64,000 nt of DNA. It comes from Methanocella sp. (GTDB taxonomy: Archaea > Thermoproteota > Bathyarchaeia > Bathyarchaeales > Bathycorpusculaceae). Where the stretch lies: contig JBLNCY010000031.1 of assembly GCA_050261115.1 (NCBI GenBank), positions 33,503-97,502 of the forward strand, in the 5' to 3' direction. A program made the translations under genes and the position numbers. The notes under the pieces were generated by a model. It ran no database searches. It saw only the letters and a list, made by a program, of their open reading frames with translations, and was not told where the DNA came from. Positions 12,210-58,213 of this stretch are shown piece after piece. The stretch's first letter is position 1, and every line of letters begins with the position of its first letter.

Positions 12210-13559
12210 ATGATAGTTGATTCTGTCCTCACCAACGCCAAAGCCTACCTCAAAGAACGGGGCCAAATCGTTGACTGCTGCATAGCCATTGAAGAAGGAA
12301 AAATATACAAAATCGGCAAAGAACCCCAAATGCCCAACGCCGACGAAAAAACTGACTTGCATGGCTTGATGGTGCTTCCAGGGTTAATTGATGAGCATGT
12401 GCATCTGCGAGATGAGGGCAGAGCATACAAAGAAGATTTTGCTTCAGGAACAGCTGCTGCCGCGGCTGGCGGATTTACCACCGTCTTAGATATGCCCAAC
12501 AATGACCCGGTTACGAAGACTGCTAAGCGGCTGGAGAACCGTATGGTGCTCGCGGACCGTCGGTTGCTAGTTAACGTGGGCTTCTACTCCGAGTTCCCAA
12601 ACACCCTCACTGAGGTCAAAGAGATTGCGGATATGGGGGCGGTTGCATTCAAACTGTTCCTAAACGGCCAAATTGGGGGGGTAAACATAGATGACGATGC
12701 CGCTCTCCTGGAGGCCTTTAAGGCAGCTGCTGGCGCTAAACGGCTGGTGGCGGTTCATGCCGAAGACCGCTCTATGATTACGGCGGCCGAAGAGAAGCTC
12801 AAAAGGGCAAAAAAGGCTGCGCCGGTCGAGTTTTTGCGGGCCCACAGCGAGGAAGCGGAACTCCGAGCGGTCCATCGACTTCTGCGATTAACCCAAAAAA
12901 CCGAAACGCACCTGCATTTCTGCCATATTTCAACCGGAGAAGCTCTAAAGGAAATCGAGCAAGCAAAAACGGAGAACCGAAAGGTCACCTGCGAAGTGAC
13001 CCCCAACCACCTTATGCTGACAGATGACGAGGTAGGCCAAAGTGGCGGTTTAGCAATCATGGCTCCACCCCTCCGTAACCGCTTACAAGTGAATGCACTC
13101 TGGAGCGCCATAGCCGATGGAACAGTTGACTGCCTAGGCTCCGATCATGCCCCCCATACACTGGAAGAGAAACAGGCAAGTAGCGTCTGGGAGGTCAAAC
13201 CCGGCATACCCGGTCTAGAAGTTACCTTGCCGCTGATGTTAACTATGGTACAGAAAGGCAAAATCTCACTCAATCAAGTCGTCGCTCTTTTAGCGGAGAA
13301 GCCAGCAGAACTCTACGGCTTAACCGATCGGGGCCAACTGAAGGCAGGCTTAAACGCCGACCTAACGGTTGCCAGCTTTAAACCTTTCAAGATAGATACA
13401 GCCAAATTCAAGACCAAAGCCAAATTCTCACCCTACAATGGCTGGGAAGTCTATGGGCGACCCATAAAAACCATAGTCAACGGTACCCTCGTCTATGACG
13501 ACGGTGACATTGTGGCTAAGGGCGGGGTGGGCGCTGTGGTGCGGGGAGGCAGCCTTTGA
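12210..13559 (+). CDS. pyrC: dihydroorotase (amidohydrolase family)
   Basis: PGLIDEHVHLR, AAAGGFTTVLDMPN, HAED, CEVTPNHL, GSDHAPH. Confidence 0.85.
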   Translation: MIVDSVLTNAKAYLKERGQIVDCCIAIEEGKIYKIGKEPQMPNADEKTDLHGLMVLPGLIDEHVHLRDEGRAYKEDFASGTAAAAAGGFTTVLDMPNNDPVTKTAKRLENRMVLADRRLLVNVGFYSEFPNTLTEVKEIADMGAVAFKLFLNGQIGGVNIDDDAALLEAFKAAAGAKRLVAVHAEDRSMITAAEEKLKRAKKAAPVEFLRAHSEEAELRAVHRLLRLTQKTETHLHFCHISTGEALKEIEQAKTENRKVTCEVTPNHLMLTDDEVGQSGGLAIMAPPLRNRLQVNALWSAIADGTVDCLGSDHAPHTLEEKQASSVWEVKPGIPGLEVTLPLMLTMVQKGKISLNQVVALLAEKPAELYGLTDRGQLKAGLNADLTVASFKPFKIDTAKFKTKAKFSPYNGWEVYGRPIKTIVNGTLVYDDGDIVAKGGVGAVVRGGSL

Positions 13560-45966: not shown

Positions 45967-46236
45967 TTAAAGCAAGAGCTTAATGAGAAAATCCATTAGT
46001 TCAGTTTTGGTTTTGAATCCTCGAAAAATGGCTTTGCCACTAGTGTAGAGCCGAAAAGAGACCCCCTCAAACGTCAACTCAAAGATGATGCCCGCGACCG
46101 AATTCTTCAAAGTCGCCCGCTTCATAATGGTGGCTATGGCTTCATCCTTCCGCTCATACTTAAAATTCACTATAACGTCGTTTTCGGCTCCGCAGGTTCC
46201 CTCGATACGTGAAACGTAATCAGCTACGGTTGACAT
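45967..46236 (-). CDS. small hypothetical protein, last gene of the Fe-S operon
   Basis: TAATG overlap with sufS; GTCG and FRLYTSGKAIFRG. Confidence 0.7.
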   Translation of the reverse strand: MSTVADYVSRIEGTCGAENDVIVNFKYERKDEAIATIMKRATLKNSVAGIIFELTFEGVSFRLYTSGKAIFRGFKTKTELMDFLIKLLL

Positions 46237-47462
46237 TAGAGTTTATCTAACTCTCCTAGGATGTCTATGAATCGGTCTATTTCTTCTTTTGTATTGTAGA
46301 GATAAAAGCTTGCCCGCGCCGAAGAAGATATCTTGAAAATTTCATGAAGGGGTTGTGCGCAGTGGTAGCCACTTCGAAGCATTATGCCATAGTTGTCAAA
46401 GAACAAAGCGGTATCGTGGCTGGATAGGCCTTTGATGCTGAAGGGTATGATTCCACATTTTTTAGAAAGATCCCTTGGCCCATATATGGTAACTTTTTCG
46501 CATTGCATCATGCGCTGGGTCGCGTATGCGGTAAGTTCTTTTTCGTGATTGAAAATGTTTTCCATACCTATTGCTTCGAGGTATTTTATGGCTGCTCTTA
46601 GCGCGATTACCCCACAAATGTTTGGTGTGCCTGCCTCAAACTTGTAGGGTAACCCATTCCAAGAAATGCCGCATCTACCACTCTGGAGGGAGACTTCACG
46701 GATCATTTCGCCGCCGCCTTGGAAGGGAGCCATTTTCTGCAGGAGGTCTCTCTTGCCGTAGAGAACCCCTATTCCCGTGGGGCCAAGCATTTTATGGCCC
46801 GAAAAAGCCAAAAAGTCAGCATCGAGGTTTTGTACGTCGATTTTCATGTGGGGCACCGATTGGGCGCCGTCGACAAGCATCAGTGCACCGTTGTCGTGGG
46901 CTGCTTTTGCTATGCGTTTAACGTTGTTTATGGCGCCTGTGACGTTTGAGACTTGGCTTAGGCAGCAGAGTTTTGTGTTTTTGGTGATTTTGTTTTCGTA
47001 GTCGTCGTAGTCGAGGGTTCCGTCGTCGTTGACTTTGGCGTATTTTATTGTGAAGCCTTTGATTTTAGAGACGATTTCCCAGGGTACAATGTTGCTGTGA
47101 TGCTCCAGTACAGAGGTAAGTACCTCGTCGTCTTTGCTAAGGTTAGCTAACCCCCAAGAGTAGGCGACAAGGTTGATGGCTTCGGTTGTGCCCCGAACAA
47201 AAATGACTTCTTCGGGTGATTTGGCGTTGATAAAGTCGACTGTGCATTCTCTGCCCCGCTCATAGAGGTCGGTTGCTTCGGCGCTGAGGGTGTGGACACC
47301 TCGGTGGACGTTACCGTTGTGGTTCTCGTAGTAGTCAGTTATGGCATCGATGACTTGGCGGGGTTTTTGGGTGGTGGCCGCGTTGTCAAAGTAGATGAGG
47401 GGGTAGCCATTTATTTTCCGCTGCAGGATGGGGAAGTCTTGGCGCAGGGCTTGGAGGTTTAT
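46236..47462 (-). CDS. sufS: class II cysteine desulfurase SufS, probable ATA start
   Basis: Open frame of 408 sense codons: (I)NLQALRQDFPIL..YFDNAATTQKP..EHHSN..DGAQ..SGHKM..EAGT..RSGYHCAQP..RASF. The ORF track truncates it at ATG 46880. Confidence 0.92.
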   Translation of the reverse strand: MNLQALRQDFPILQRKINGYPLIYFDNAATTQKPRQVIDAITDYYENHNGNVHRGVHTLSAEATDLYERGRECTVDFINAKSPEEVIFVRGTTEAINLVAYSWGLANLSKDDEVLTSVLEHHSNIVPWEIVSKIKGFTIKYAKVNDDGTLDYDDYENKITKNTKLCCLSQVSNVTGAINNVKRIAKAAHDNGALMLVDGAQSVPHMKIDVQNLDADFLAFSGHKMLGPTGIGVLYGKRDLLQKMAPFQGGGEMIREVSLQSGRCGISWNGLPYKFEAGTPNICGVIALRAAIKYLEAIGMENIFNHEKELTAYATQRMMQCEKVTIYGPRDLSKKCGIIPFSIKGLSSHDTALFFDNYGIMLRSGYHCAQPLHEIFKISSSARASFYLYNTKEEIDRFIDILGELDKL

Positions 47463-47968
47463 TGTTTTTCTGCCTCAGCTTTCATCTTCTTTGAGAGTTT
47501 TTGCGCCAACTCTTCCTCTTCAAGCGCTTGTTTTTCTTCAAAGGTGTGTTCTTTGCTGAGCCAACTTGGGAACTCTGCGCCCTTTTGAGTGAAGTATTGG
47601 CGTATGGCACGTTTTAGAGCGCCCACTGCTAGAACACCGCAGTGGAATTTTACGCTGGGTAAGCCGCCGATTTCTTCGGTAACTTTTTGCCAGGTAACGT
47701 TTTTCCAAGCATCCTCTAGGGTTAGGCCTTTGATCATTTCGGTGACTATGCTAGAAGTGGCTATGTTGGCGGCACAGCCGTAGCTTTCAAACTGGGCTTT
47801 TTCGATGATTTGTTGGTCGTTGATTTTTAAGTAGAAGGTGATCATGTCGCCGCATGCAGGGTTGCCTGCGACCGCGACGACGGTTGCATCTTCCATTTTA
47901 CCCAGGTTCTTGGGGTTTCGAAATAGATCCATGACTTTGGGGTTATACGGTAAGGGTATACGTGACAT
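47459..47968 (-). CDS. iscU: Fe-S scaffold IscU/NifU-N
   Basis: FRNPKNLG, GNPACGD, YGCAA, KFHC. Start ATG 47968. Confidence 0.92.
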   Translation of the reverse strand: MSRIPLPYNPKVMDLFRNPKNLGKMEDATVVAVAGNPACGDMITFYLKINDQQIIEKAQFESYGCAANIATSSIVTEMIKGLTLEDAWKNVTWQKVTEEIGGLPSVKFHCGVLAVGALKRAIRQYFTQKGAEFPSWLSKEHTFEEKQALEEEELAQKLSKKMKAEAEKQ

Positions 47969-47969
47969 T

Positions 47970-49193
47970 TTAGTGCACTCCTGTTGAGCCAACTATCCCT
48001 CTGATACGGTTGACCGCTTCTGGTAAAACTTTCAGGACGTAGTTTATATCGTCTTCTGTATGGCTGCGGTTAACCTTCATTAGTATGCTGCCGTGGGCTT
48101 CTTCAAATATTCGGCCGATAGCGATTAAGACGTGGCTGGGCTGTAATAATCTACGACTGCAAGCTGATCCGCTAGAAACGTAGACGCCTTTGAGGCTGAG
48201 TTCGATGGTTAGGGCTTCGCCTTCAGCTCGTAGGATGCTTATGTTGGCGTTGTCGGGGCTGCGCTTGTCGCCTTTGGGGCCGTTAAAGCGGAGATCAGTT
48301 AACTCGTTGAATATGCCATCGACCAACTGGTCACGGAGACCGCGTAGTTTAGCTACGTTTGCATCAAAGTCGGTAAAGGCTAGTTCTGAGGCTTTGGTGA
48401 ATCCGACGATAAGTGGGGTGTTTTCGACGCCGGGCCAAAGCTTTTGGGTGCCAATCGGTCCTTCTAGGATGCGGTCTAAATTGACGCCTTCCTTGACGTA
48501 TAGGGCGCCTACCCCTCGTGGACCCTGGATCTTGTAGCTGCTGACTGTGGCTAAGTCTACGCCGAGGCTCTGGACATTTAGAGGGATTCTGCCGTATGCA
48601 TCGGAGGCGTCGGTGTGGAAGAGAGCGTTTGGGTTTTTGGCTTTGACGATGTCGACGGCTTGCTTGATTGGCTGGATGGTGCCCACTTCGTTGTTTACGC
48701 TATGGAGGCTTACTAGGGCGGTATCGTTGTCGACTGCGGTTTTGAGTTTCTCAAGGTTGATTTCACCCTCAGTGTTTACGGGGATTTTTTGTACGTTGAA
48801 CCCGAATTTGCTCATCATTTCGGCGACTTGCAAGACATTTATGGGTTCGATTTCTGAAATGACGATTTTTTTTGCTTTGCCTTTCTGTGAGAAGCAGCCG
48901 CCTATGATGGCGAGGTTGTTGGCTTCGGTTTCGCCGGGGGTGAAGGTGAGTTCCTCGGGGTTTTTTGCTCCGAGGTAGCTGCCGACTTTTTGGAAGCAGC
49001 CCATGAGTGTTTCGAAGGCTTCCCAGCCGGGTTTGTGGGTTAGGGTGGGGTTTCCGTAGGCTTTTTGATTCCAGTAGGGCATCATAGCGTCTAAGATTTC
49101 TTGGGGGACTCTGCAGCTGTTTTCGTTATCCAAGTAGACTTCGTGGGTGATTCCCTCGTGGAGTTGGAGAAGGTTCCTTATGTTTTCAACCAT
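47970..49193 (-). CDS. iscS: class I cysteine desulfurase-like (IscS/NifS) with atypical active site
   Basis: YGNP, TEANN, NNEVGTIQP, K..GPRG, VSSGSACS; several PLP/substrate residues substituted. Confidence 0.8.
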   Translation of the reverse strand: MVENIRNLLQLHEGITHEVYLDNENSCRVPQEILDAMMPYWNQKAYGNPTLTHKPGWEAFETLMGCFQKVGSYLGAKNPEELTFTPGETEANNLAIIGGCFSQKGKAKKIVISEIEPINVLQVAEMMSKFGFNVQKIPVNTEGEINLEKLKTAVDNDTALVSLHSVNNEVGTIQPIKQAVDIVKAKNPNALFHTDASDAYGRIPLNVQSLGVDLATVSSYKIQGPRGVGALYVKEGVNLDRILEGPIGTQKLWPGVENTPLIVGFTKASELAFTDFDANVAKLRGLRDQLVDGIFNELTDLRFNGPKGDKRSPDNANISILRAEGEALTIELSLKGVYVSSGSACSRRLLQPSHVLIAIGRIFEEAHGSILMKVNRSHTEDDINYVLKVLPEAVNRIRGIVGSTGVH

Positions 49194-49278
49194 ACAGTAT
49201 CCTGCCTGTTTTGAGAGATTAGATAACTCGTCACTGTGGATTATGACTGTTCAGGTAATAAAATGTAGCTGTATAAAA

Positions 49279-58134: not shown

Positions 58135-58213
58135 TGGTAGCGGGGAGTAGATTTGAACTACTGATCTCTGGGTTATGAGCCCAGCGGGTTAATCCTGGCT
58201 ACCCCACCCCGCT
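58135..58213 (-). tRNA. initiator tRNA-Met (CAT), CCA encoded
   Basis: A1-U72 (AGCGGGG/CCCCGCT), three G-C pairs in the anticodon stem (CTGGG-CTCATAA-CCCAG), TTCAAAT loop. Confidence 0.95.

Follow-up and report, generated by a model that had tools for sequence, protein, structure and literature searches.

Comparative and RNA evidence for a probable AUA start codon of sufS at the stop codon of iscU in a bathyarchaeial genome

How does a cell make a protein from a reading frame that offers no ATG, GTG or TTG until almost half of it has gone by? The question is raised by sufS, a cysteine desulfurase gene that lies directly behind iscU in a stretch of 64,000 nucleotides (nt) – the window – from the Methanocella sp. 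assembly GCA_050261115.1 (contig JBLNCY010000031.1, positions 33,503 to 97,502), a genome that GTDB places among the Bathyarchaeia, family Bathycorpusculaceae. Both genes are read from the minus strand. The frame of iscU closes with GCT GAG GCA GAA AAA CAA TAA, the stop occupying 47461-47459, and the sufS frame runs through the same letters as TGA GGC AGA AAA ACA ATA AAC CTC CAA GCC CTG CGC CAA GAC TTC CCC ATC CTG. From stop to stop the sufS frame holds 412 open codons (46236..47474); the first ATG, GTG or TTG among them is codon 199 (ATG 46880), 194 codons past the ATA. Because an in-frame TGA closes the frame upstream, translation of sufS must begin, or shift into frame, within the five codons from TGA to AAC. 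The elements of the junction are these:

47475..47477, minus strand: TGA, the in-frame stop that bounds the sufS frame on its upstream side, read from the sequence.
47473..47476, minus strand: GAGG, a motif resembling a Shine-Dalgarno (SD) sequence, inside iscU and 10 nt upstream of the ATA, recognised from the sequence and from enriched k-mers.
47465..47469, minus strand: a run of five A residues (GAAAAAC) in the last codons of iscU, from the sequence; the sole conceivable site of -1 slippage.
47460..47462, minus strand: ATA, the proposed sufS initiation codon, aligned with the GTG or TTG of 51 orthologs and matching the start of a 408-residue NCBI protein.
46236..47462, minus strand: the sufS coding sequence as proposed, 408 codons and a TAA, on the evidence of TIGR01979, motifs, substitution rates and RNA contigs.
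46878..46880, minus strand: ATG, the first canonical start in the sufS frame and the start of a truncated call of 214 residues in the list of open reading frames (ORFs).
47459..47968, minus strand: iscU, encoding an IscU/NifU-type iron-sulfur scaffold of 169 residues, from ATG 47968 to TAA 47461-47459 (Pfam NifU_N, 133.8 bits, residues 8-129).

Against the NCBIfam SufS model TIGR01979 the open frame scores 582.8 bits (cut-off 475.1), and because residues 9-409 of the frame cover positions 2-398 of the 403 in the model, the conserved SufS protein starts only a few codons past the TGA. The frame carries GHK (as SGHKM) and the cysteine loop RSGYHCAQP, which we take to be the functional motifs of the pyridoxal phosphate (PLP) lysine and of the catalytic cysteine, respectively. 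This 2.15-Mb genome has 3414 stop-to-stop ORFs that reach 100 codons or more, and none has a longer stretch ahead of its first canonical start; chance is therefore no explanation. The sequence-only reading that drew attention to the locus had described a sufS without a canonical start for 194 codons from an ATA, the overlap of that ATA with the iscU stop, and the position of the essential motifs RQDFPIL, YFDNAATTQKP and EHHSN ahead of any canonical start. These descriptions hold to the letter: what is left from ATG 46880 is an ORF of 214 residues, all three motifs lie upstream of it, and the ATA shares its T and its last A with the TAA to give ATAA (47459-47462). The TTGA letters cited for comparison at 13556 are likewise found in the sequence.

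Might the letters themselves mislead? An error of assembly, or RNA editing of the ATA to a canonical start, would dissolve the problem. Yet every one of the 293 words sampled from the operon is contained in each of 11 DNA runs, drawn from four studies of anaerobic digester, compost, sludge and biofilm; some of these runs may be the source of the present assembly. A 28-kb DNA contig from a compost run crosses the iscU-sufS junction without differences. Six RNA-library runs hold 83-97% of the same words, and RNA contigs from three studies – X12 over 46286-48240, X13 over 46780-48085 and X17 over 46854-47860 – pass through the junction free of gaps and of deviating letters. The consensus of DNA and RNA at the junction is ATAA, where the earlier reading had envisaged that reads might show ATGA. 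The same non-canonical state is, moreover, found in some 40 independently assembled genomes. Since the DNA words and the RNA contigs agree, assembly error is excluded, and so, at the level of a majority of transcripts, are editing of the ATA and slippage on the A run; the probability that error or editing accounts for the locus is next to negligible.

A second way out would be that sufS is decaying or silent, that only the piece of 214 residues from ATG 46880, or nothing, is made, and that the IscS-type desulfurase upstream does the work. A second cysteine desulfurase is indeed encoded two genes upstream of sufS, and gene callers do produce the 214-residue form. However, the frame of more than 400 codons is intact in 42 orthologs that share the non-canonical state, the catalytic motifs are kept, and the RNA libraries of three studies cover sufS – weak evidence of expression, and with contig depth figures that are unfit for ranking genes by transcript level. 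The short piece, for its part, would presumably be without half of the PLP fold. Selection speaks to the same point. The median pairwise ratio of nonsynonymous to synonymous substitution rates (dN/dS) is 0.067 among non-canonical orthologs (150 pairs sampled, 64 of them usable) as compared with 0.075 among canonical orthologs (63 pairs). Splitting the alignment at the first ATG of the window gene yields 0.078 for the part ahead of that codon and 0.069 for the rest (53 pairs out of 250 being usable); many pairs were dropped because synonymous sites are saturated. The cysteine loop, as RSG[YF]HCAQP, is kept in 41 of the 42 non-canonical rows and in 56 of the 59 canonical ones. Purifying selection on the upstream half indicates, therefore, that the N-terminal half is translated and needed in species without a canonical start. 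Decay or silence is extremely unlikely; our data support sufS as a genuine gene, intact, transcribed and under selection, for which a non-canonical start is required.

Which codon, then, is the start? The genus comprises 120 species genomes, 111 of them with a sufS match at E <= 1e-100. Junctions are designated L001-L110, and codons are numbered from the D of the conserved DFP motif, which places the aligned start at -8. Our tree contains 101 intact sequences – 93 orthologs from the genus, four paralogs and four outgroups – with L011, L025, L108 and L110 set aside for their length and L033, L106 and L028-L030 by the motif filter; it is a quick tree, and its clade supports are from the SH-like approximate likelihood ratio test (SH-aLRT) only. 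In L011, L025, L106, L108 and L110, all from assemblies of few contigs, sufS is split or shifted by single-base indels, which are probably long-read homopolymer errors and not the marks of pseudogenes. Position -8 is canonical in 51 of the 93 genus orthologs and non-canonical in 42, as follows:

GTG at -8: 49 of 93 orthologs.
TTG at -8: 2 of 93.
ATA at -8 or -9, with no canonical start before DFP: 32 of 93.
ATA at -8 or -9 plus a new ATG at -6: 4 of 93.
CTG at -8: 2 of 93.
CTA at -8: 2 of 93.
TTA at -8: 1 of 93.
TTT at -8, with ATA at -10: 1 of 93.

Save for the four with ATG at -6, the non-canonical orthologs have no in-frame canonical start upstream of DFP, and ATG is found at the aligned position in none of the 93. 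Where the codon is GTG the architecture is that of the window: either GTG overlaps a TGA stop as GTGA (six of the parsed orthologs) or it follows TAA after 0-2 bases. Outgroup families have TAA-ATG, ATA-ATG or GTG at the junction. The two closest relatives, L031 and L032 (81% and 80% identity), have an ATA that overlaps TAA too, so that the earlier reading's alternative – all close orthologs with ATG and a silent copy here – is not what the genus presents. On the tree the non-canonical state falls into clades of 15 rows (support 99%) and 19 rows (97%), the pair L006 and L049 (100%), the trio L001, L031 and L032 (99%), and the single sequences L046 and L074; CTG at the start position has at least two origins, each beside GTG sisters.

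A further copy of sufS, about 64% identical and with no iscU ahead of it, is found at another locus in some genomes of the genus (L104, L105, L107 and L109); it has a TTG start of its own behind GGAGG or GGGGG.

The letters from the upstream TGA to the conserved block offer a single near-cognate candidate at the aligned start, the ATA; the one other ATH, CTG or ACG codon ahead of the block is a CTG, three codons before DFP. Initiation at a different non-AUG codon – this CTG at -3, or an ATC or ATT upstream in the clade of 15 species – is thus an alternative with something to recommend it: CTG is near-cognate and in frame, and all 15 rows of that clade have ATC or ATT at -10 or -11, with ATA in 12. 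But the short interval at the junction in this genome contains no ATC or ATT, and -3 is occupied among orthologs by codons for an ordinary hydrophobic residue (ATC, ATA, CTT, GTT and others), which is not the behaviour of a start. It is the ATA that aligns with the canonical codon. We consider a different non-AUG start highly unlikely, and the alignment supports the view that the ATA at 47462-47460 is the only plausible sufS start here, standing where congeneric species would start with GTG.

A more radical alternative dispenses with a start for sufS altogether: a fusion of IscU to SufS would be made by programmed -1 ribosomal frameshifting, or by transcriptional slippage, on the A run. The geometry is right: sufS is in the -1 frame with respect to iscU, and the 15 nt from the TGA to the iscU stop contain a run of 5-8 A in almost every non-canonical ortholog. 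There is also a precedent for -1 frameshifting on A-AAA-AAT in fucA1 of the archaeon Saccharolobus solfataricus, documented in the available portion of a 2021 review (PMC8211752), and the two cases are alike in having an A-rich stretch where the two frames of a gene pair meet. Unlike fucA1, however, the sufS junction has no proper heptamer: the iscU frame (GCA GAA AAA CAA TAA) offers five A residues and no X XXY YYZ, so that only single-tRNA slippage on AAA is conceivable. Nor is the run conserved – among orthologs it measures 8, 7, 5 or 3 residues, and within clades it changes (8, or 5 with a C interruption) while the ATA stays – and the orthologs with a GTG of their own are separate genes, three of which (L008, L055 and L082) carry the A5 as well. 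L072 has CTG at the aligned position, a TAA-CC-CTG junction, no canonical start and only three A residues; L033 has its iscU in the other frame, with an overlap into sufS of about 14-17 nt, and would require a shift the opposite way. The RNA contigs of the three studies contain no indel in the run. Finally, purF, which has no overlapping upstream gene, and dnaG (both described below) display a like loss of canonical starts. Frameshifting or slippage is in our estimation quite unlikely.

The comparative and RNA evidence together give good support to a real AUA start at the iscU stop, as far as sequence can establish one. We think it very probable that the AUA of sufS is read by the ordinary initiator methionyl-tRNA, in an event of near-cognate initiation that is positioned by the SD motif, probably aided by termination on iscU, and probably low in output. 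The codon is one base from AUG. The CAU anticodon of the initiator would pair with AUA 47462-47460 with a mismatch at the third position; GAGG, 10 nt upstream inside iscU, would place the small subunit at the AUA; ribosomes terminating at the overlapping iscU UAA would probably help, by termination-reinitiation; and the weak start codon would probably hold SufS output low. That AUA is the codon used, that methionine is the first residue, that coupling contributes and that expression is low we infer. Coupling of sufS to iscU termination and a low ratio of SufS to IscU, both put forward in the sequence-only reading, may be regarded as plausible. Single RNA contigs span iscU and sufS in three runs, and stop and start overlap as ATAA (L033, with its longer overlap, excepted).

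Three components of this proposal can be looked for in the genome. Upstream of its unambiguous canonical starts the enriched k-mers are GAGG, GGAG, AGGT, GGTG and GTGA, and it is from these that we took the SD consensus, a search of this assembly for the 3' end of 16S rRNA, with the anti-SD sequence, having found none. Matches of 4 nt or more to the SD, 10-15 nt ahead of the start position, occur in 42 of 42 non-canonical orthologs (GAGG in 25, GGAGG in 15, AGGA in 2) as against 24 of 51 canonical ones, a contrast that is suggestive only, because the species are related. The initiator tRNA lies in the window:

58135..58213 (C31:91637-91715), minus strand: initiator tRNA gene with a CAT anticodon, found with aragorn, with A1/U72 and a GGG:CCC anticodon stem in its sequence.

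We take A1/U72 and the GGG:CCC stem to be hallmarks of an archaeal initiator. A special initiator tRNA for AUA was considered and rejected, as the initiator has the anticodon CAT and no tRNA with a TAT anticodon appeared in the aragorn search, which detected two of the three expected CAT tRNAs (a run permitting introns found fewer tRNAs). The absence of aIF1 was considered too, and rejected as to presence: the gene is there, with an SUI1 match of 82.8 bits and an ordinary ATG start.

Several observations weigh against initiation at the AUA, or against the force of the comparison that points to it. In three orthologs of the clade of 15 the aligned position is taken by CTA or TTA, and all that is left to them is an ATC 2-3 codons upstream; clades may thus differ in the exact codon they use, and the argument from the aligned position is imperfect. 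Part of the recurrence of ATA could be a by-product of the overlap itself, since a final iscU codon ending in A followed by TAA or TAG gives ATA. The clade counts and the SD correlation come from related species, and so overstate independence. A genome-wide test of SD context found no enrichment for ATA (9 of 232); only ACG was enriched (9 of 94, uncorrected p 0.0024). The test, of low power because a 5-nt SD precedes just 18% of the unambiguous canonical starts, does not enter into our case for sufS. Rare variants are lost from contigs, and a minority of slipped or edited transcripts could escape notice. In E. coli, the one system measured, AUA is a very weak start: the available portion of a preprint (bioRxiv 10.1101/063800) puts initiation from AUA, AUC, AUU and CUG at 1-2% of that from AUG, and at 0.02-3% in other constructs. 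A review of archaeal initiation, in the portion available, names AUG, GUG and UUG alone as starts (PMC7531240).

Is sufS alone in its genome? We ranked the ORFs by the coding potential of the sequence ahead of their first canonical start and scanned them against Pfam. Conserved domains reach ahead of the first canonical start in six further proteins:

TrpE-like: Pfam domain at residues 34-171, first canonical start at codon 153.
PurF: Pfam domain at residues 72-214, first canonical start at codon 125.
Methyltransferase: Pfam domain at residues 41-166, first canonical start at codon 71.
Acyltransferase_3: Pfam domain at residues 21-351, first canonical start at codon 105.
AsnC/Lrp regulator: Pfam domain at residues 7-48, first canonical start at codon 57.
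Fer4 protein: Pfam domain at residues 46-86, first canonical start at codon 55.

The clearest parallels come from purF and from a DnaG-like primase. In this genome purF lies outside the window (C31:7339-8823, minus strand), and an ACG directly follows a TAA. Across 30 genomes of the genus (loci L125-L154) the codon two before the catalytic cysteine, the X of X-G-C-G-I-F, is ATG in 7, ATA in 13, ACG in 8 (this genome among them), CTG in 1 and ATC in 1; all of these starts stand behind the same GAGAAGGGAC context, with a TATA-like AAAATTGATAAA some 45 nt ahead of them. Among the 23 non-canonical purF genes, six have a canonical start in frame 12-34 codons upstream; the remaining 17 offer no such alternative once the upstream stop is passed. 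The primase gene (C28:22582-23838, minus strand, in this genome; L155-L184 in the genus, 27 of the 30 parsed) has no canonical start before the conserved TGTSQTFTIKYVV block in 23 of the 27, with one 32-59 codons upstream in the other four; an invariant ACG, 7-10 nt behind AGGAG or AAGGTG, is likely to be its start, judging from sequence. In this genome all three frames ahead of purF and of the primase gene are interrupted by stops, which leaves no overlapping gene to which either could be coupled. Near-cognate starts thus look to be a trait of the lineage, for which overlap with a stop is no precondition.

The remaining cases are more varied. The TrpE-like gene (C16:9009-10445, minus strand, L111) and the methyltransferase gene (C8:43144-43983, plus strand, L115) have an ATG in another frame, followed by runs of A5 or A6, and a frameshift, an indel and a near-cognate start are all candidate explanations of their startless state. 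Domains ahead of any canonical start are seen also in L116 (acyltransferase_3), L119 (AsnC/Lrp), L120 (PolB-like), L122 (Fer4) and L114, where in-frame ATA, ATT, ATC or ACG codons behind GAGG-like motifs are candidate starts.

A wider proposition can be framed from sufS, purF and dnaG: that this genus, and perhaps Archaea more widely, may select start codons in a loose, eukaryote-like manner, with AUA, ACG, AUC and CUG replacing AUG or GUG at one site as an evolvable dial of output, and that sufS may be held weak and never given an ATG. For this proposition we see the chances as evenly balanced.

The infC and pcnB genes of E. coli start at AUU, and bacterial near-cognate starts resemble that of sufS in several respects: a codon one base off AUG in a conserved housekeeping gene, an SD motif ahead of it and an expectation of low output. 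The differences are equally clear. The host of sufS is an archaeon with aIF1, aIF1A and aIF2 of the eukaryotic type; the codon is polymorphic among species at a single position (GTG, TTG, ATA or CTG); and, unlike infC, the sufS start has no evident autoregulatory role. Eukaryotic machinery of the eIF1/eIF2 type accepts initiator tRNA on AUA, ACG or CUG, a set that recalls the ATA, ACG, CTG and ATC at the start positions of sufS, purF and dnaG. In contrast to eukaryotic initiation, sufS involves no scanning from a cap: the SD motif and the overlapping stop would position the ribosome.

As to the literature, the available portion of the preprint on E. coli initiation already lists ATA, ATT, ATC and CTG as annotated, rare bacterial starts (bioRxiv 10.1101/063800). 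For archaea, overlaps of the ATGA type are described, in the available portion of PMC6728339, as places where ribosomes ending the upstream gene help the downstream start. The iscU-sufS pair is like such termination-reinitiation pairs, as far as the available portions of PMC6728339 and PMC10666635 portray them, in its four-base overlap (ATAA), in the SD motif inside the upstream gene and in the functional link between the genes; it is unlike them in that its restart codon is not ATG, GTG or TTG. In the portion of PMC10666635 that is available, non-canonical starts come up solely as something that might give rise to rare -5 overlaps, and a 2025 review of coupling does not mention AUA, AUU or near-cognate starts (PMC12548453). 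The 2021 review, in its available portion, counts archaeal non-canonical translation events as demonstrated for elongation and termination only, and cites work in which aIF1 discriminates against non-canonical starts (PMC8211752). Papers describing AUA, ACG or ATA near-cognate starts in archaea were not found, in a literature largely outside subscription journals. Near-cognate start codons as such are already known, and the AUA start of this sufS is already annotated by one pipeline; lineage-wide use of ATA, ACG, CTG and ATC starts appears not to be in print.

The setting of sufS is an operon whose genes all point the same way: a desulfurase of the NifS/IscS type, the IscU/NifU_N scaffold, sufS and a small ORF. 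The features around iscU and sufS are:

49219..49221, minus strand: ends of RNA contigs with adapter letters, in three runs, about 26 nt upstream of the ATG of the first gene.
47970..49193, minus strand: NifS/IscS-type cysteine desulfurase, 407 residues, starting with ATG, first gene of the operon, with NCBIfam matches below cut-off.
45967..46236, minus strand: ORF of 89 residues from the ORF list, its ATG overlapping the sufS TAA by one base (TAATG).

The contig ends are a weak hint that the 5' end of the operon transcript lies at 49219-49221, contigs being no proof of a transcript end. The matches of the first gene, all below the NCBIfam cut-offs, are 357.8 bits to TIGR03402 (NifS) and 277.4 bits to TIGR02006 (IscS). 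The iscU product also matches the NCBIfam models NifU_clost and IscU, and beyond NifU_N it continues for about 40 residues as a charged, probably helical C-terminal tail (..FEEKQALEEEELAQKLSKKMKAEAEKQ; window 47459-47580, minus strand); the SD motif and the start of sufS lie within the coding sequence of this tail. The 89-residue ORF has no NCBIfam match and, in Pfam, only a sub-threshold match to DUF3378; a similar small ORF lies 3' of sufS in a genome of another family (L028).

What becomes of such a gene in the databases is of practical importance. The sequence-only reading had predicted that standard gene callers would halve the protein. This is borne out by the exact truncated SufS of 214 residues on 40 public contigs (NCBI, JGI/IMG and Logan), relatives being present as pieces of 184-290 residues. 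It does not extend to all callers, for NCBI holds, on a contig of 97,502 nt, a protein of 408 residues beginning MNLQALRQDFPIL, which is this ATA read as methionine. Given the halved SufS in public collections, metabolic reconstructions from metagenomes of Bathyarchaeia can be expected to under-call or mis-size sufS and genes like it. Beyond annotation, the sufS case – some 40 species, repeated exchanges of GTG, ATA and CTG, no ATG at the aligned position, and RNA data – makes two matters testable: how strictly archaeal aIF1 and aIF2 read the start codon, and whether weak starts may serve to set the ratios of enzymes within an operon.

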